From an uncultured Planctomycetia bacterium (GTDB lineage: Bacteria > Omnitrophota > Gorgyraeia > 1-14-0-20-64-10): a stretch of 64,000 bases of DNA. The stretch spans positions 5,714-69,713 of the forward strand of contig CAYJVR010000002.1 of the NCBI GenBank assembly GCA_964373715.1, read 5' to 3'. Position 1 is the stretch's first letter. Every line of letters starts with the position of its first letter. The notes under the pieces were generated by a model. The model did no database searches. It had not been told where the DNA came from and saw only the letters and a program-made list of their open reading frames with translations. Of this stretch, positions 5,080 to 12,362 are shown piece after piece. The position numbers and the translations under genes are program-made.

Positions 5080-5319
5080 ATGAAAACCGCTAAGAGAAAA
5101 CGGGTTCTCAAGTTTCGGCCGTTGGAGCAGTGGCAGCTGGACATATTAGCTGAATCCGAATCGGAGAGAAAAAAGAGCTCAAAGAAGTAATTCCCGCCAG
5201 TTGGTTTATCCATAGGGAGCGGTCCTATCCTCGCTGATATGAACCATCCGCTGGCGGGTAAGACGCTGGATTTCAAAATCAAGGTTGTTTCCATCACCTC
5301 GCCTCCTGCCGATAAGTAA
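5080..5319 (+). pseudogene. Remnant of a SlyD-type FKBP peptidyl-prolyl isomerase gene (intact RBS and start, in-frame stop, internal loss, conserved C-terminal strand)
   Basis: GGAGG then 7 nt then ATG; MKTAK... resembles the SlyD N-terminus MK[VI]AK; TAA at 5188-5190; the same frame continues ...DMNHPLAGKTLDFKIKVVSI*, matching the SlyD/FKBP C-terminal signature (E. coli SlyD DGNHMLAGQNLKFNVEVVAI). Total ~79 codons versus ~150 for an intact FKBP domain. Confidence 0.35.
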
Positions 5320-5335: not shown

Positions 5336-5392
5336 CCCCTTACCCTGCCCTCTCCCCTGAGGGGAGAGGATAAAGGTGAGGGGATGGTTGTG
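5336..5392. other. GC-rich imperfect hairpin with a perfect 9-bp core (CCTCTCCCC tga GGGGAGAGG)
   Basis: Direct reading: 5349-5357 is the reverse complement of 5361-5369; the flanks CCCCTTACCCTG / ATAAAGGTGAGGGG are partly complementary. Confidence 0.4.
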
Positions 5393-5475: not shown

Positions 5476-5559
5476 ACTACCAAAATTTGGTAGTTATTGC
5501 GCTTGATGAATTTATAGAGTAAATTGACAAGGTATTTGCTGGATGTGAGAATAACCGCT
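5476..5559 (+). promoter_or_regulatory. Candidate operator (near-palindrome CTACCAAAATTTGGTAG) followed by a sigma70-like promoter (TTGACA-17 nt-GAGAAT) for the 5618 gene
   Basis: 17-bp near-palindrome at 5476-5492; TTGACA at 5525-5530; 17-nt spacer; GAGAAT at 5548-5553; the only AT-rich stretch in the region. Confidence 0.3.
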
Positions 5560-5617
5560 AAAGCAGGGAGGATTTTCCGTCAACACCAGTCGCTTTAGAC
5601 GTGGAATCAGCGTCATC

Positions 5618-6997
5618 TTGGCGTTCTCTCTTCTCTTTTTTGCCGCCCCCGTTTTTTCCCAGAACGAGTACGAAAGCGAAGTTCCTTCCCGCGAAACGGA
5701 AGCCCAGGCGAAAGCGCGGAAGACAGCCGCTCAGGCGCGGCAGCGCGTTCCCTTCGAAGGAAAGCAGGTGACCTACGAGCAGGTTCTCGCCGATCCCGAC
5801 AACATTGGTTTGAATTTCGATTACGCGAAGATACAGATCGTGCGCGGAGACGTTAAGGGGTCTGCGGCGACCCTCGAGAGGCTTCTTTTAGTGAACCCTA
5901 TGCTGGAGAAGGTTCGCCTCCTCTACGGGGTTGTTCTTTTCCGGCTCGACAATTTGGAAGAGGCCGAACGGATGCTTGACAGCGTGCGGGAGATGAAGAT
6001 TACAGACTCCCTGCGCGGGGAGGTGGATAATTATCTGCGCCAAATCCACCTGCGCCGCAAACGGACTCGCTGGACGGCCAGCGTAACCGCCGGGTTTGAA
6101 TTTGATTCGAACCGGAACGCCGCCTCCTCCTCAAAACAACGTTTGGTGGCGGATGCGCCGACAGGGTTGGGATCAAGCTCCCGAAAAAGGGATACGAGCT
6201 TCCTTGGGATCCAGAGCTTTAAGGTGTCCCATGATTTGGGGACTCAAGCGGGGCATCAGTTGTTCGCATCGTTCGACCATTTTCTTCAGGAGCAGACAGT
6301 GGTGAATTCCTTGGATCTGGAGTCCTTTTCGGGGGAGGCCGGCGGCTCCTTTAAGATCGGTCCCGCTGTTTTCACCCCTTCCGCCGAGATAGGCAACATC
6401 CGCCTTTCGAGAGAAACGTTCCTGCGGACGCAGGGAGGCGCCCTGCGCCTGGACCGGCGGGTCAACGAAAAGTGGGTTCTTTTTTGCAACGGGCGGTGGG
6501 TTCGGGAGGATTACACCGGCATTTCGGAGAACTCCGCCGCTCCGCAGCGGCGCGGGCACCGGGCAACTATGGAGCTTGGAACCAACTATGTGCTGAACCC
6601 GGCAATGCGGATTGACGTGAGCGGCAGCCTCATCACCAAATATGCGAAAGCGGCCTACTACGAGTATGACGGCTATGTTGCACAAGCGGGCCACACCTGG
6701 CTGCCAGGCAAGGGCCAGTTTCTGACGAACAGTTTTTCCTACGAGATGGATGCGTATGATGATCCGGATTTTGCCATCAGCGCCCGGACGCGGCGGGATG
6801 AAAAGTACCGGTACCGCCTGACATACGGGGCGCCCGTTTCTTTCTTTATAGGGAAAAAGATACTGCCTAAATTCATTCTGGATGACCTGACGGCAACGGT
6901 GATCTACGAACAATTTAGAGCGATATCCAACGTACAGAATTACACCTACACGAATTCAAAGGCAGTGGTCCTGTTAACAAAAACCGTGGAGTTTTAG
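5618..6997 (+). CDS. Outer-membrane beta-barrel protein with N-terminal TPR-like helical domain (architecture like Slam/DUF560 or FapF-type secretion pores)
   Basis: Signal peptide (LLFFAAPVFS/QN); ~130-aa helical TPR-like region; alternating hydrophobic beta-strand pattern; C-terminus ...KTVEF ends in Phe, the classic OMP beta-signal. Confidence 0.55.
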   Translation: MAFSLLFFAAPVFSQNEYESEVPSRETEAQAKARKTAAQARQRVPFEGKQVTYEQVLADPDNIGLNFDYAKIQIVRGDVKGSAATLERLLLVNPMLEKVRLLYGVVLFRLDNLEEAERMLDSVREMKITDSLRGEVDNYLRQIHLRRKRTRWTASVTAGFEFDSNRNAASSSKQRLVADAPTGLGSSSRKRDTSFLGIQSFKVSHDLGTQAGHQLFASFDHFLQEQTVVNSLDLESFSGEAGGSFKIGPAVFTPSAEIGNIRLSRETFLRTQGGALRLDRRVNEKWVLFCNGRWVREDYTGISENSAAPQRRGHRATMELGTNYVLNPAMRIDVSGSLITKYAKAAYYEYDGYVAQAGHTWLPGKGQFLTNSFSYEMDAYDDPDFAISARTRRDEKYRYRLTYGAPVSFFIGKKILPKFILDDLTATVIYEQFRAISNVQNYTYTNSKAVVLLTKTVEF

Positions 6998-6999
6998 CC

Positions 7000-8574
7000 A
7001 TGCCGAAATGCCGATTGCTGTTGCGCGTGTTTTTCGTGTCAGCGGCGCTTCTGACAGCCTTGCCGGCGTGGGCCCAGCCCGCTCTTCCGGCCGGGATTCC
7101 CTCAGCCGCGCCGGAGGGAGCAGTCCGGGTGGGAGTGGCGGCGGCCGTCAAGGGAACGGTGGAGATTACCCCCCCAGGAGCTGTCGGAAGAATCGCCGCA
7201 AGCGGCCAGCCGATTTTCTTGGGAGACACCGTGACGACCAATGCGCAAGGGGTTCTGCAGATCCTTCTTCTCGATGAGACGACGTTTACGATCGGCCCGA
7301 ACAGCGCCATTGTGATCGATGAATTCGTTTATGATCCGGCGACCTCCGCCGGAAAATTGAGCGCCCGGGTAGTTAAGGGAGCGTTCCGGTTCGTCACTGG
7401 GAAAATCGCAAAAAAGAACCCGAAAGACATGGAAGTAAAACTGCCCTCCGGCACCATCGGGATCCGCGGCACGATTGTGGCGGGGTTTGTTCAGGGAGAG
7501 GCAGCCAAAGTGGTCCTTTTGGGGCCCGGGCCGAGAAACAATACCGGAGACCCGCCCGGCCGTATCGTGGTCAGCAACGTGGCGGGCGGGAAGCTCCATG
7601 AGGTGGCGTTGACCCGGCCTGGATTTGGAACGGAGATCAAAGGGGTTGAAGCGATCCCGTCGCCGCCCGCTCAGGTTCCCGAGGCGGAACTGAACACCCT
7701 CCTCAGCGTGTTTCTGAGCCCTCCCCCTCCACCCGAGCAGACGGAGGGGCCGTCGGGAGCCGGCCAGCAGTCTTCTGGTCAGCAGGGATCGCAGACTCCG
7801 GCAGCAGGGGGGGGCTCAACTACGGGACAGTCATCCAACAGTACGGACGGTTCCGCCGGCACCTCTACCGCTGGATCGGGATCGGAGCCGGGGGGGATGA
7901 GCGACTCGGAAGGGGCGCCGCTCGCCGGCGGGTTTTCGGCGGGAGATTCGACAGCGGGATTTTGGACTGAAGGAGGAACAACGAATCTTGGGAACACAGG
8001 AAGTTTTCAGGATCTGACCGGAGGCCTGGGAGATCTTTCTCAGCAGACTGCTCAGTATACGGCCAATCAATCGGCGCAGATGGGTAATCTGATCGCTACC
8101 CAGGAACAGCTCCGGAGCATTCAAACAGGCGTTTTCCACTATAAAACAAACGGAGCGATCGGCTCATTCGTCCAGACGGTGATGAACGGTTTGCCGGTCC
8201 TTATTTCCGGAACGATCAGCGTACAGGTCAACATTGATTTCGGCGCCCGCGAGCTTGCCGGGACCGTTGGAGGGACAAGCCAATCGAAATACACGCTGGA
8301 TACGCTCAGCTACGGAGGAGACATTTCTGCGGCGGACGTTTCCATCAACCCCCAATCGTTTTCCACCGGAACCGGCCCCGCCGTTTTTCAGGATCCTTCG
8401 GGAGGAGTCCATCAGGTGAGCTTGGAGGTCAGGAACATCGATGGGGCTATCGCCAGCGAAGCGCGGATGGGGGTCACTTACAACACCACCTCCACCGATG
8501 GGGCTGCCAACCGGGATGAAGGCTCTACTCCCACATCGGTGGTAATGCAGCGCGAGGCAGGGGCTGCGCCTTAA
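7000..8574 (+). CDS. Secreted FecR-domain protein with long S/G/T/Q-rich low-complexity linker and C-terminal beta-rich domain
   Basis: SPI-type signal peptide (ALPAWA/QP); FecR-like domain (VKGTVEI...GDTVTTNAQGVLQILLLDETTFTIGPNSAIVIDEFVYDP...FRFVTGKI...GTIGIRGT); ~150-aa S/G/T/Q-rich region; starts 3 nt after the upstream gene. Confidence 0.6.
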   Translation: MPKCRLLLRVFFVSAALLTALPAWAQPALPAGIPSAAPEGAVRVGVAAAVKGTVEITPPGAVGRIAASGQPIFLGDTVTTNAQGVLQILLLDETTFTIGPNSAIVIDEFVYDPATSAGKLSARVVKGAFRFVTGKIAKKNPKDMEVKLPSGTIGIRGTIVAGFVQGEAAKVVLLGPGPRNNTGDPPGRIVVSNVAGGKLHEVALTRPGFGTEIKGVEAIPSPPAQVPEAELNTLLSVFLSPPPPPEQTEGPSGAGQQSSGQQGSQTPAAGGGSTTGQSSNSTDGSAGTSTAGSGSEPGGMSDSEGAPLAGGFSAGDSTAGFWTEGGTTNLGNTGSFQDLTGGLGDLSQQTAQYTANQSAQMGNLIATQEQLRSIQTGVFHYKTNGAIGSFVQTVMNGLPVLISGTISVQVNIDFGARELAGTVGGTSQSKYTLDTLSYGGDISAADVSINPQSFSTGTGPAVFQDPSGGVHQVSLEVRNIDGAIASEARMGVTYNTTSTDGAANRDEGSTPTSVVMQREAGAAP

Positions 8575-8575
8575 A

Positions 8576-10804
8576 CTACTTCGTGGTGGCTACGAATCTG
8601 CCGTCCCATTCTTTGCCGGGCGGGTTTGCCTCGTACAGCTCAATTCGCTCTCTGTAGAGGGCGTACAGCGCTTGAAGCCGCAGAGCGGGAGTTTCCAGTT
8701 TCCGGCATTCCTCGATAAGGCGCCGGGCGTCGTCCCAGCATTGTGTCCGGTAGGCCTCGAGCATCCGGTTGTGTTTGGCTTGCAGTTCCCGGAAAGAGTT
8801 CTCCGCATTTAAGAGGCTGTCTCCTAAAAGCGCGTAAATTCGAACAGGAAGGGTCTTTCCTTTCACGGTAATCAGGTCAATTTCCAGGCAGGCGTAATCG
8901 CCCGCCTGCTCCCGGCTCTGGTCTCCGAGGATAATATCCACGCCGTGCGTCTTGGATTGGCTTTCCAAACGGGAAGCCAGGTTGACGGTGTCTCCAAGCA
9001 CCGAGTAGTCGAATCGCTGATCCGACCCCATGTTCCCGACGCAGCAGGTTCCCGTGTTAATGCCGATTCCGATATGGACCGGCATCCACGATCTGCCGAG
9101 CGACTGCGCCTGGGCCGCCTGTTCTTTGTTCCACGCGATCAAGGTTTTCCGCATTTCAAGGGCCGCGTTACAGGCATGGCGGGCGTGTTCCGGGTCTTCC
9201 AGAGGGGCGTTCCAGAACGCCATGATGCAGTCGCCGATGTATTTATCAATCGTTCCGCTGTGTTTTAAGATAATGTTGGTCATAGGCGTCAGAAAGCGGT
9301 TCATGAATTGCGTGAGGCCCTGAGCGTCGAATTGTTCCGACAGGGTGGTGAATCTGCGGATATCCAGGAAAAGCAGCGTCATCGTTTTCAATTCCCCGCC
9401 CAGACGCAGCTGCTCGGGGTGTTCGGCGAGACGTTTGACGAGAACGGGAGAGAGATAACGGCCGAAAGCCTGGCGCACCTGCCGGCGCTCCATTTCCGTT
9501 TGCCAGGAGATGATGATGGAAGTCGCGAGATAAATGCTGACGGCTGTCAGGGAAGGGAAGACCGGATCCAGGAGCCAATGGTTTTTTGTGAACGCCAGCC
9601 AGGATCCCGCGTATGCGCCGGCGACAGCCAGCACGCCCGCGAGCGCGCACCAGAGAGGGCCTAAGCGGGGCAGCAGGAGGATAAGCCCGATTCCCGTCGC
9701 CACGAGAAAAAGCAATTCAGCCCCCGGCGCCCAGTCCGGGCGGTGGAGAAATTCGCTCGAAAGGGTCTGTTCAATCAATTGGGCGTGGACCTCCGTCCCG
9801 CCGGCCGCCGGATTAAGAGGCGTTGCCCGTATGTCTTTCAGCCCGGCAGCGCTGCTTCCGATAAAAACGATCTTCCCTTCAACAAGGGACCGGTCAAAAT
9901 CCCCGGTGAAAACGGTCCAGGCCGGAACGAAGCGGGCGGCCGCCGGGCCGGTGTCGTAGATCCAGACGCGGCCCTGCTCATCCGTTGGAATCTCGAAGGA
10001 ACCGATCTTGACCGCCACAATGCCGGTTTGGGCCCCTCCGCCCGTTTCGCCGCTTCCCTCGGAGGATTTCACCGTGATCGTCGAAGTTCCCTGCGCCACG
10101 CGCAGCGCTTCGGCCGCCAGGGAGGGGTAAAGAGAGTCGCCGAGGCGCAAAAACAGAGGGACGCGCCGAAGGATCCCGTCCCTTTCCGGCAGGATGTTGA
10201 AATGGCCGTTCCCTTTGGCCGCCTTTTCCAGCTCCGGAAGATTCACGACGGCCCCGCTAAGTCTTGGGACGAATAGAAGAGGATTGTCTCCGCCGTAAGC
10301 GATCCCTGTTTTTAATGCGGGTGTTTGGCCGTTTGGCTCGCTGGATAACACGAATCCGCAGACGACGTTCCCGTTGGAAATCGTTTGAGCGAGAAGCCGG
10401 TCATGGTCGGGCAATTCCCGCGCGGCGGCCTCCAGCGCCGGCGCGGCGGGCCAGAAGGCGATGGCTTGAGAGGGAGAAGTCCGGTCCGGCTCGGAAAAAA
10501 CGATATCGAGAGCAACGACGGCGGCATCCGCCTCATAAAGGCGGCCGATAAGTTTCGCCACCTGGGTGCGCGGCCACGGCCATTGCCCGAGGCGCTTGAG
10601 GCTTTCATCGTTCAGATCCACCACGCATACGGCGGTTTTTTCGAAGGAGCGTGGTTTCAGGTGTTGGAACGTGTCGAAGATCTTAAATCGCGCGTCTTCC
10701 AAAAGGGGAGGATCGGCGATTCGCAGGATTGCCGAGGCGAGGAGGATCAGCGCAGGAAGCAACCACCGCGACCACCGTCCCGATAGCCGGAATGCGCGAG
10801 TCAT
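8576..10804 (-). CDS. CHASE2 sensor-domain class III adenylate/guanylate cyclase
   Basis: N-terminal TM, then CHASE2 signature (VCVVDLNDESLKRLGQWPWPRTQVAKLI...ALDIVFSEPD), TM block, then the cyclase catalytic core (LTLLFLDIRRFTTLSE, GDCIMAFWNAP, IGINTGTCCVGNMGS...LGDTVNLASRLES), then a ~100-aa helical C-terminal extension. Confidence 0.8.
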   Translation of the reverse strand: MTRAFRLSGRWSRWLLPALILLASAILRIADPPLLEDARFKIFDTFQHLKPRSFEKTAVCVVDLNDESLKRLGQWPWPRTQVAKLIGRLYEADAAVVALDIVFSEPDRTSPSQAIAFWPAAPALEAAARELPDHDRLLAQTISNGNVVCGFVLSSEPNGQTPALKTGIAYGGDNPLLFVPRLSGAVVNLPELEKAAKGNGHFNILPERDGILRRVPLFLRLGDSLYPSLAAEALRVAQGTSTITVKSSEGSGETGGGAQTGIVAVKIGSFEIPTDEQGRVWIYDTGPAAARFVPAWTVFTGDFDRSLVEGKIVFIGSSAAGLKDIRATPLNPAAGGTEVHAQLIEQTLSSEFLHRPDWAPGAELLFLVATGIGLILLLPRLGPLWCALAGVLAVAGAYAGSWLAFTKNHWLLDPVFPSLTAVSIYLATSIIISWQTEMERRQVRQAFGRYLSPVLVKRLAEHPEQLRLGGELKTMTLLFLDIRRFTTLSEQFDAQGLTQFMNRFLTPMTNIILKHSGTIDKYIGDCIMAFWNAPLEDPEHARHACNAALEMRKTLIAWNKEQAAQAQSLGRSWMPVHIGIGINTGTCCVGNMGSDQRFDYSVLGDTVNLASRLESQSKTHGVDIILGDQSREQAGDYACLEIDLITVKGKTLPVRIYALLGDSLLNAENSFRELQAKHNRMLEAYRTQCWDDARRLIEECRKLETPALRLQALYALYRERIELYEANPPGKEWDGRFVATTK

Positions 10805-11535
10805 TCCAGATGTGTTTTAAAGGCCAGCTCCAAATCGTCGAGCATGAAGCCCTTTATGGAGAAAGAGACGCCTTCCGTGAAAGCGCCGAGAATCGCCAGC
10901 GCGTTCGGGTTGGCGTCGCCTTTCGTTGCGGACCTTATCCGGTGCGCGAAACCTTCGTTGACCTTTTGGATCTGGCTGTACATCTGTTCGAGCTGGGCCA
11001 GCGTCCAATCCGCTGGCTTGCCGTTTTTTGCTCTCAGATACTGGGCCATCAGGTACATCGACAAAATCCTGAATTGGGTTTCTTTCAAATCCGAGAAGGG
11101 AAGGTGGTGGCGGATGAGAGGCTTCAGTTTGCTTGTCACAGGACAGCCGCTGGCGGCCATCAAAAGCCCGATAAGCCCGCTTAAGGCTTTTTGCAGAGGG
11201 GTCAGCTTTTCATAAACCCGCTCGGGCCCCTCCACGCGGACAAGGACTTTGTCATAAGAGATGGCGGAAGCAAAAAATTCCACGACGTCCACAATACTCA
11301 CGGCGGCCGGGCACCGGGGCGAGTCCTGTTCATTCAGCGGGCAGTTCGCGCATTGGCGGTAAGAGAGCTTAGTCCACTCCGGAAGGGAGGTTTTCTCCGG
11401 GAACAGAAGGCTCAGGGATGCTTTTTCCAGATGGACGGAGAACGCTTTTGTTTCTCCCGAGGGGAGCTTAAAAATATATTTATAGCTGAGAGCTTCCTCC
11501 GGCTTCTTTTTTGGCGCGCTCAACGGTTCGTCCAT
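10801..11535 (-). CDS. Hypothetical soluble protein with paired-Cys motifs (CANCP...RCP...GCP), translationally coupled to the cyclase
   Basis: 244-aa ORF; its stop overlaps the cyclase ATG (ATGA) and its start overlaps the MBL gene by 16 nt; no TM segments; no family I recognise. Confidence 0.5.
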   Translation of the reverse strand: MDEPLSAPKKKPEEALSYKYIFKLPSGETKAFSVHLEKASLSLLFPEKTSLPEWTKLSYRQCANCPLNEQDSPRCPAAVSIVDVVEFFASAISYDKVLVRVEGPERVYEKLTPLQKALSGLIGLLMAASGCPVTSKLKPLIRHHLPFSDLKETQFRILSMYLMAQYLRAKNGKPADWTLAQLEQMYSQIQKVNEGFAHRIRSATKGDANPNALAILGAFTEGVSFSIKGFMLDDLELAFKTHLE

Positions 11536-12362
11536 GTTTTATCTCCCGCCAAGTCCAGAGCCAAATTTCCGGAAGCGGCCATTGTGTTTGGAAAGATTTT
11601 CCGGGTTTTTTCAACGATGTCGTCGATTTCCTCGTCCGATCGGCCGGGGTCGTGCGAGGTCAAAATAAGTTTCTGAACGCCCGCTTCCGCCGCGGTCCGT
11701 GCAGCCATCTCCCAGGTGCTGTGGCCCCAGCCGATCCTCTGTGGAAATTCTTCGGGGGTGTACTGGGCATCGTGAATCAGCGTGCCGGCTCCGCGGCAGA
11801 ATTCGAGGAATTTTCCGTCGAGGCCGGGGTCCCCCGGTTCCCGGTCTGTGGCCAGTACGAGCGTGTGGTCTTGGCCGGACAGTTTATAGCTCAGGCATCC
11901 CTGCGGATGGCGCACCGGGCACCAGGAAACGCGGATGCCGTAGAGGTCCATGCGGCTGCTTTTATCGGGCAAAGGTTTGAACTGGACCGATGCCCCCGAA
12001 TTCAGCAGAGGGACAGGCCAAAAAGGTTTTTCGGCGAATGTCTTGACAGCGGTCACCCAGTCCTTCAGGACGGCTGAGTCGGCCATGAATGTCACCTGGG
12101 CGCCGGGCGTCAGAAAAGGTTTAAACGCGGTGATTCCCAGAATATGGTCCAGATGGACATGCGTCAGGAGAATGGTGATCGGCGGGAGACTGTTTCGGCC
12201 GCATAAGGCATCGCTTAGAGAGGAGATCCCCGTCCCCGCGTCCAGCACAATAAGCCCGGAAGGGGTTTCCAGGCTCACGCAGGGGGTGTGCCCGCCATAC
12301 CGGAGGTACTCTTTACCGGATACCGGGCTGCTACCTCGGGCGCCGTGAATGGTGATCTTCAC
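11520..12362 (-). CDS. MBL-fold metallo-hydrolase, class II cyclic-nucleotide phosphodiesterase-like (HxHLDH)
   Basis: THVHLDHILGI matches the metallo-beta-lactamase H-x-H-x-D-H zinc site and, as I recall it, the class II PDE signature HxHLDH[LIVM]xG[LIVMA]; N-terminal beta-strand MKITIHGARGS...LIVLDAGTG is typical of the MBL fold; first gene of the cyclase operon. Confidence 0.5.
   Translation of the reverse strand: MKITIHGARGSSPVSGKEYLRYGGHTPCVSLETPSGLIVLDAGTGISSLSDALCGRNSLPPITILLTHVHLDHILGITAFKPFLTPGAQVTFMADSAVLKDWVTAVKTFAEKPFWPVPLLNSGASVQFKPLPDKSSRMDLYGIRVSWCPVRHPQGCLSYKLSGQDHTLVLATDREPGDPGLDGKFLEFCRGAGTLIHDAQYTPEEFPQRIGWGHSTWEMAARTAAEAGVQKLILTSHDPGRSDEEIDDIVEKTRKIFPNTMAASGNLALDLAGDKTWTNR

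Follow-up and report, generated by a model that had tools for sequence, protein, structure and literature searches.

The question raised by positions 5618 to 8574 of a 64,000-nucleotide stretch of DNA from an uncultured Planctomycetia bacterium (contig CAYJVR010000002.1 of assembly GCA_964373715.1, positions 5,714 to 69,713 of the forward strand; hereafter, the window) is what an outer membrane beta-barrel protein with a tetratricopeptide repeat (TPR) domain and an exported FecR-domain protein do together. Both open reading frames (ORFs) that a previous sequence-only reading had placed there, gene A (5618-6997) and gene B (7000-8574), were recovered at these coordinates on the forward strand. 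They had been treated as a two-gene unit; the pair stands, but a third partner had been missed, namely gene C (8576-10804, reverse strand), a convergent gene for a CHASE2 adenylate cyclase, and it is this partner that gives the pair its biological meaning. A functional link among A, B, and C is very likely. The results further suggest that events at the cell surface are relayed to cyclic AMP (cAMP) in a way not described before, and a probability of roughly 0.45 is assigned to the reading that the three proteins form a single envelope-spanning cAMP signaling module in which B has a split topology, with its C-terminal barrel outside the cell and its FecR domain in the periplasm.

The linkage of the three genes was observed directly. 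One genome per species was scanned with a profile of 23 closer A sequences, yielding 80 loci in which ORFs were called and then searched with custom profiles. These loci derive from Omnitrophota, Elusimicrobiota, Alphaproteobacteria/Rhodospirillales, Myxococcota/deltaproteobacterial, and Spirochaetales metagenome-assembled genomes (MAGs), the nearest relatives of A and B being those of Candidatus Omnitrophota. A FecR gene adjoins the outer membrane protein (OMP) gene in all 74 loci with enough sequence; in 72 of them it directly follows the OMP gene in the same orientation, with a median gap of 3.5 nt, and 56 of these adjoining FecR genes include the C-terminal barrel domain. Such pairing is far beyond chance and supports the earlier proposal that B is a cargo or partner of A, the two genes being kept as neighbors across all of the groups listed above. 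A CHASE2 cyclase gene occurs in 63 of the 80 loci; where full 8-kb flanks are available (36 loci), 33 have one. Its placement varies (convergent downstream in 30 loci, divergent upstream in 21, and on the same strand either downstream, in 6, or upstream, in 4), and these four arrangements point to selection for proximity rather than to one inherited operon; that proximity is kept while order varies argues, in turn, for functional coupling. Five further loci containing an OMP, a FecR-family gene, and a CHASE2 cyclase were reached via homologues of A or C, with FecR confirmed by the custom profiles: an Omnitrophota MAG, an Elusimicrobiota MAG, a 5.4-Mb genome, Hoeflea, and a Shinella plasmid.

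These counts bear on an alternative in which A serves as a common porin or in polysaccharide export (PgaA/BcsC/PelB type) and B is an incidental neighbor. Adjacency to a FecR gene in 74 of 74 loci from several phyla speaks against a general porin. Polysaccharide export was rejected as well, since no polysaccharide synthase gene was found within ~10 kb of the pair and since PgaA-type barrels have 16 strands (PMC8406197), as opposed to 14 in A. The alternative as a whole is thus extremely improbable. The same ~10-kb surroundings contain no type 1 secretion, extracytoplasmic function (ECF) sigma factor (sigma-70 r2/r4), or TonB-dependent receptor genes; a classical FecIR system was therefore rejected, given that neither a sigma factor nor a transducer is nearby.

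Gene C encodes a protein of 742 residues and converges on B, with a single nucleotide separating the two stop codons. An N-terminal, periplasmic CHASE2 sensor (PF05226, E 6e-55; aa 21-371, positions 9692-10744) is combined with a cytoplasmic class III cyclase catalytic domain (Guanylate_cyc, PF00211, E 2.5e-23; aa 473-659, positions 8828-9388). Comparison by eye with established class III motifs located the metal-binding Asp, the Lys...Asp pair, and the Asn/Arg residues (TIDKYIGD, FDYSVLGD, and TVNLASR). The Lys...Asp pair is the one that specifies ATP as the substrate, and C is read as a predicted active adenylate cyclase.

The 459-residue product of gene A (C-terminus ...TVEF) is a candidate outer membrane secretor of a type distantly related to Slam and the type 11 secretion system (T11SS; DUF560). 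As had been proposed, a TPR domain is followed by a C-terminal barrel that ends in Phe: the periplasmic TPR domain (aa 53-147, positions 5774-6058) matches TPR_19 (E 5e-7), and an AlphaFold2 model computed with 97 homologues as input (predicted local distance difference test score [pLDDT] 94.8, predicted template modeling score 0.89) has helices over aa 53-147 and then 14 long strands over aa 150-458, the barrel as a whole spanning aa 150-459 (positions 6065-6994). In the Protein Data Bank (PDB) representative set, the closest structures to this barrel are the 14-strand barrels CymA and OmpG. No POTRA domain is present, which rules out an Omp85/TpsB identity (BamA, TamA, FhaC; POTRA domains with a 16-strand barrel), one of the outcomes that the sequence-only reading had named as fatal to its proposal; the others, a general porin and a lack of conserved adjacency, are not borne out either.

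T11SS OMPs consist of TPR domains and 14-strand barrels (PMC8406197), and Slam1 translocates unfolded cargo on its own, with recognition via a C-terminal cargo motif having been proposed (PMC9090332). With these secretors A shares an N-terminal TPR domain, a 14-strand C-terminal barrel, and an adjoining gene for its predicted cargo. Its sequence scores 21.7 bits against SlipAM (DUF560, PF04575; cut-off 22), a model matched by 41 of 97 A homologues at E<=0.01 (best 3e-9), while the Slam-specific TPR_Slam model (PF24575) is matched by 40 of the 97 and DUF2860 by 28; the consensus of the family reaches 41.1 bits against SlipAM. The idea of a dedicated translocator of the Slam/DUF560 type is supported by these matches for the family as a whole, and A may accordingly be placed, by sequence and architecture, as a distant member of, or a sister to, the Slam/T11SS barrel family. 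No Slam chain was among the 60 matches listed for A in the fold search of the PDB representative set, and the OMP profile gave no useful match to PDB sequences. It is considered probable that A works as a Slam-like translocator and has B as its substrate. The best-conserved motif of the OMP family, D-x-N-R-N-A-A-P-S-S-K, lies after the first barrel strand (positions 6104-6136, A residues 163-173); D163, N165, R166, and N167 are near-invariant, the model puts small strands at aa 174-183, and the region may form an in-pore loop or plug.

Gene B begins 3 nt past the stop codon of A and encodes a protein of 524 residues, predicted to be Sec-exported and to be the cargo or partner of A. Its signal peptide (aa 1-25, positions 7000-7074), judged by eye from the translation without a predictor, is of the signal peptidase I type, ends ...LPAWA before QP, and has no lipobox Cys at the cleavage site, as had been claimed; no other hydrophobic segment was seen by eye. 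The same type of signal peptide is present in the first 25 B homologues inspected, and a loose lipobox-like pattern occurs in 9 of 120. T11SS cargo likewise carries a Sec signal peptide, whether lipidated or not. The N-terminal part of mature B is a FecR-type beta domain (aa 43-236, positions 7126-7707), of which aa 76-171 match FecR PF04773 (E 4e-10) and the N-terminal half resembles the retention module of LapA/MpIBP adhesins. Next come a G/S/T/Q/A/P-rich linker (aa 237-336, pLDDT <50) and a helix (aa 337-360; linker and helix together, positions 7708-8079), followed by a C-terminal beta-barrel (aa 365-524, positions 8092-8571; pLDDT >90), read as soluble and tentatively as similar to those of T11SS cargo. 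The FecR domain and C-terminal beta domain of the earlier description are thus present, but the linker is shorter than the ~150 residues given, at ~100 residues, or 128 with the helix. A disordered linker of at least 36 residues is found in 118 of 120 B homologues (median 81.5 aa, 5th-95th percentile 68-186).

T11SS cargo has been defined by its C-terminal barrel, which is also said to decide secretor specificity (bioRxiv 10.1101/2023.03.15.532718), and the FecR domain is not among the roughly ten catalogued T11SS cargo architectures (PMC12282271). When PDB sequences were searched with the barrel-domain profile of B, the best match was a hemophilin (E 0.014), with the alignment falling on the 'DF..KT..G' strand motif, which in the B family reads IDFGARTxGGG. 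The closest structural matches of the B barrel are exported proteins, and transmembrane barrels score below soluble cargo barrels. The designation of B as a cargo-like partner of A is supported by these resemblances together with the gene pairing.

Evidence on where the barrel resides comes from unusually long relatives. Among 1.84 billion representative proteins, the barrel-domain profile matched only 337 clusters, so the family is small. It includes two giant proteins, of 3,297 and 1,991 aa, in which a single FecR domain at the N-terminus and a G/S/A-rich linker precede 19 or 11 tandem barrels, respectively. Both giant genes (L093, 6001-15894, 19 barrels; L094, 2608-8583, 11 barrels) lie directly downstream of an OMP homologue (A profile E 1e-161 and 3e-154), and a CHASE2 cyclase is located 1.6 kb from the larger one. 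Arrays of 11-19 barrels are judged too long for the periplasm, suggesting export of the barrel part, with A as its exporter. A SurA-like rotamase gene is found near the 19-barrel gene, and an FkpA-like FKBP gene, possibly for a chaperone, upstream of the 11-barrel gene.

The B barrel could instead be a small 8-strand membrane barrel (OmpA/OmpX/NspA type) by which a periplasmic FecR domain is tethered, with A as an accessory or assembly factor. The ranking of soluble cargo barrels above transmembrane barrels does not fit this, nor do several modeled strands of just 5-7 residues. Furthermore, B and its homologues end in ...GAAP, ...GLSP, and similar tails without an aromatic C-terminal beta-signal, whereas A ends in F, and 11-19 tandem membrane barrels are implausible. 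B as an integral OMP is therefore improbable. About half of the B homologues carry an R-x-x-G-x-x-P tail (e.g., ...MQREAGAAP at positions 8540-8574 of the window); its candidacy as a recognition signal for the TPR domain of the OMP was dropped because only that fraction carries it.

It is also conceivable that nothing is translocated: A would be a receptor resembling FecA or NsrA, and B an entirely periplasmic protein bridging the TPR domain or barrel of A to CHASE2, with its barrel serving for docking. This would agree with the FecA-FecR contact, which is periplasmic (PMC5498481); with NsrA, an outer membrane barrel needed for signaling to CHASE2 cyclases; with a Campylobacterota cluster of a CHASE2 cyclase, phosphodiesterase, FecR, and TPR genes for which one pathway was proposed (PMC9239204); and with the weak sequence link between the B barrel and T11SS cargo. 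Against it stand the 11-19-barrel relatives, which occur in the same gene context and look too long for such a bridge; the construction of A (TPR domain, 14 strands, SlipAM and TPR_Slam matches), which matches a translocon rather than a TonB-dependent receptor; and the exported proteins that are the best structural matches of the B barrel. A simple bridge would, in addition, not need a long disordered linker. A purely periplasmic B is thus regarded as unlikely.

If the barrel is exported, the location of the FecR domain decides the topology of B. Homology links the FecR domain to the retention module of LapA/MpIBP, which anchors an adhesin from the periplasmic side of its outer membrane pore (bioRxiv 10.1101/198937). 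FecR proteins are also paired with CHASE2 proteins where no OMP is present. In Burkholderia and Pseudomonas aeruginosa, a protein combining FecR with LysM (peptidoglycan-binding) is paired with a CHASE2 gene (PMC5192318); in Sinorhizobium meliloti, the FecR gene SMc02177 apparently adjoins cyaD1, by our own reading; and on an Ensifer plasmid (L005) a 220-aa FecR-only protein is paired with a CHASE2 cyclase. Such pairs suggest that the FecR-CHASE2 relationship is periplasmic. The disordered linker kept by nearly all B homologues is also counted in favor of a FecR domain that stays in the periplasm. A small TPR protein encoded beside the 220-aa FecR protein has no detectable homology to the TPR domain of A, and a scenario of joint loss of both barrels at this Ensifer locus was dropped for that reason. 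Sequence divergence differs among the parts: the barrel domain evolves fastest (mean p-distance 0.74), compared to 0.50 for FecR, 0.51 for CHASE2, and 0.38 for the cyclase domain, which is taken as a further sign of an extracellular barrel.

These observations also bear on the possibility that B is exported whole, the FecR domain acting as a surface effector (e.g., an adhesin or binding module), with the cyclase either co-regulated or sensing periplasmic depletion of B in a manner resembling FlgM export. Slam1 does transport unfolded cargo (PMC9090332), the A-B pair occurs in three loci without a nearby cyclase, and the FecR-type proteins of Leptospira include Lsa33, named as a surface adhesin, and LipL45, named as a lipoprotein, whose models are matched by 78 and 47 of 87 B homologues, respectively. 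Surface FecR-type proteins, which the earlier reading would regard as unusual, had thus been claimed already. Conversely, the FecR-CHASE2 pairs that lack an OMP or cargo barrel, one of them bearing LysM, put FecR in the periplasm; FecR is homologous to a module that holds proteins on the periplasmic side of a pore; and FecR is conserved to the same degree as CHASE2 while the barrel is far more variable, as would fit a fixed internal partner for FecR. Secretion of the whole of B is, on balance, rather unlikely. Export of the C-terminal barrel is favored, and a FecR domain at the surface is the weakest part of the earlier proposal. We infer, tentatively and at somewhat less than even odds, the split topology, i.e., barrel outside and FecR in the periplasm.

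In the envelope-spanning module so envisaged, A would recognize the C-terminal barrel of B and move B, unfolded and C-terminus first, through the outer membrane, whereupon the barrel would fold at the cell surface. The FecR domain would fold in the periplasm and not be passed, as in a LapA-type retention module, and because it is retained there, the linker would remain threaded in the barrel of A. The periplasmic FecR domain would then touch the CHASE2 domain of C, such that surface events (binding, pulling, or loss of the barrel domain) could alter this contact and thereby change cAMP synthesis in one direction or the other. The most specific version, in which B is threaded through a type 11-like barrel, bears one to as many as 19 outer sensor barrels, and gates the CHASE2 cyclase directly via FecR, is a speculative proposal, at about one chance in three.

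Two further genes of the reverse strand would probably contribute to resetting or relaying the signal. A DUF6901 gene (10801-11535; PF21842, E 4e-71) overlaps the start of C by 4 nt in the same operon, and a gene for a metallo-beta-lactamase-fold hydrolase (11520-12362; Lactamase_B_2, E 8e-16) is the first gene of this cyclase operon. DUF6901 genes adjoin the cyclase in three other loci (L007, L011, and L016), as do metallo-beta-lactamase genes (L005, L007, and L011), and the hydrolase may, by analogy, be regarded as a candidate cyclic-nucleotide phosphodiesterase. Genes farther out in the window are unrelated housekeeping genes.

Several results count against this model. Regarding A, the relationship to Slam is remote, with the single protein just below the Pfam cut-off. 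The family consensus matches DUF2860 (50.5 bits) more strongly than SlipAM, and for this reason A is not a proven member of the Slam/T11SS family. Moreover, the called TTG start at 5618 gives a signal peptide of 15 residues that lacks a charged n-region, as compared to 25-40 residues in A homologues. Regarding B, Foldseek returned no significant match for the barrel domain, the consensus of the C-terminal domain matched no Pfam model (TbpB_B_D and FHBP_C included), and among family members weak matches to TbpB_B_D and FHBP_C were confined to 1 of 28 and 1 of 87, respectively. In a mirror-tree and partial-correlation analysis of six domains across 48 loci, all parts co-vary (r 0.4-0.8), and neither the barrel-barrel nor the FecR-CHASE2 pairing was singled out; the top non-self partner of the cargo barrel was the OMP barrel (r 0.48, partial 0.32), by a margin too small for use. 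In three loci with full flanks (L030, L072, and L077), no cyclase gene lies near the A-B pair; the genomes concerned hold at least two copies of the pair. T11SS cargo has been described as reaching the surface or the medium and as having an N-terminal effector domain, so that a cargo held in the pore would be without precedent in T11SS. Finally, all relatives come from MAGs or unstudied isolates, and the system is known from sequence alone.

One of the closest known systems is Slam/T11SS (e.g., Slam1-TbpB of Neisseria and HrpB-HrpC of Xenorhabdus), in which a DUF560 OMP is paired with a cargo having an 8-strand barrel. The A-B pair differs in that its relationship is remote by sequence, the B barrel being missed by the Pfam TbpB_B_D and lipoprotein C models; in that the N-terminal domain of B is of the FecR/retention type; and in that the linked gene encodes a CHASE2 cyclase rather than TonB, iron, or heme functions. 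T11SS has been described for Proteobacteria, whereas A-B is found mainly in Omnitrophota and Elusimicrobiota. In the literature searched, DUF560, T11SS/TXISS, or 'surface lipoprotein assembly modifier' appeared nowhere together with CHASE2, no T11SS cargo with a FecR domain was found (the single T11SS paper naming FecR refers to a neighboring iron regulator), and no report of giant multi-barrel variants was found. The type of gene cluster, in contrast, had already been noticed (PMC9239204): the Campylobacterota cluster contains the same four gene types, including a hydrolase/phosphodiesterase, the comparison being one of gene types.

Like FecA-FecR-FecI, B has a FecR domain predicted to be periplasmic. 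However, unlike the FecR proteins of that system and PupR, it has a cleavable signal peptide and neither an anti-sigma domain nor a transmembrane helix; neither an ECF sigma factor nor a TonB-dependent transducer is encoded near A, B, and C, and the output would be cAMP. An outer membrane barrel coupled to CHASE2 cyclases is also known from S. meliloti, where these cyclases (CyaK, CyaD1, and CyaD2) need the barrel protein NsrA for sensing an external protein signal (PMC7529298, PMC13001267) and where the FecR gene mentioned above apparently lies beside one of them. A tblastn search of a plasmid collection with the A homologue of Hoeflea (P0116) matched only the Shinella plasmid and no Sinorhizobium replicon, although inclusion of pSymB in the collection was not confirmed. 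With the LapA/MpIBP adhesins, which use the TolC-like pore LapE, B has in common an N-terminal retention module. B differs from them in being Sec-exported rather than a type 1 substrate, without RTX repeats or genes for an ABC transporter and membrane-fusion protein, and the pore would be the 14-strand barrel of A instead of a TolC-like channel. Genetic coupling of FecR to CHASE2, finally, is shared with the LysM-FecR and CHASE2 histidine kinase pairs of Burkholderia and P. aeruginosa.

CHASE2 is a widespread extracytoplasmic sensor for which no ligand was known in 2016 (PMC5192318), and a conserved FecR partner tied to a dedicated outer membrane pore constitutes a testable input pathway. Gating by a threaded FecR protein, if true, would be a new mode of signal transfer across the outer membrane, with a protein partner as the CHASE2 input, and would join Slam-type translocation, LapA-type retention, and FecR-type cell-surface signaling in one mechanism. 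T11SS is at present described as proteobacterial and tied to the capture of heme, metals, and host factors; the module would add further phyla (Omnitrophota, Elusimicrobiota, and others), a new cargo architecture, and a role in signaling. The giant relatives with 11-19 barrels suggest surface fibers that report to the cyclase.

Variation among the loci was noted in several respects. More than one FecR gene is present in 30 of the 80 loci (e.g., L015 12488-13399, L020 5386-7296, L024 10761-12633, and L033 9699-11603), and in many Omnitrophota loci the FecR-barrel gene is separated from the cyclase gene by one to three short (~300 aa) FecR paralogues without a barrel; no such extra paralogue is present in the window. 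On two rhizobial plasmids, from Shinella (NZ_CP093338.1; L006 9089-15919) and Ensifer (NZ_CP070354.1; L005 1-5788), the FecR-cyclase modules lie beside NHLP-type bacteriocin export genes (C39 peptidase ABC transporters) and also adjoin a gene for a cyclic-nucleotide-binding-domain protein, neighbors that hint at a cAMP-controlled output. In one Omnitrophota genome (L001/L008, 11091-12671 and 15276-16553), genes for a hybrid histidine kinase and a response regulator intervene between those for FecR and the cyclase, and the cyclase gene is followed by one for a GAF-SpoIIE phosphatase.

The 5' region of gene A (5545-5617) has a frame open from 5555 with no ATG, GTG, or TTG until 5618, and positions 5545-5620 are unchanged across three independent assemblies. 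A GTG at 5545 starts an 18-codon ORF in a different frame, which terminates at CTT TAG A; a +1 slip at this prfB-type site would yield a leader of 39 residues, like those of homologues P0005 and P0007. A candidate sigma-70-like promoter (TTGACA-17-GAGAAT with TG; 5524-5552, forward strand; 10 of 12 consensus matches, by pattern only) would begin transcripts downstream of GTG 5545, unlike what the slip would need. Farther upstream, a short open stretch at 5188-5318 that ends in ...ADMNHPLAGKTLDFKIKVVSITSPPADK* and contains no plausible full-length gene is probably a gene remnant; we take it to resemble FKBP-type (SlyD-like) prolyl isomerases at their C-terminus. The stretch is followed at ~5347-5370 by a GC-rich inverted repeat, CCTCTCCCCTGAGGGGAGAGG.

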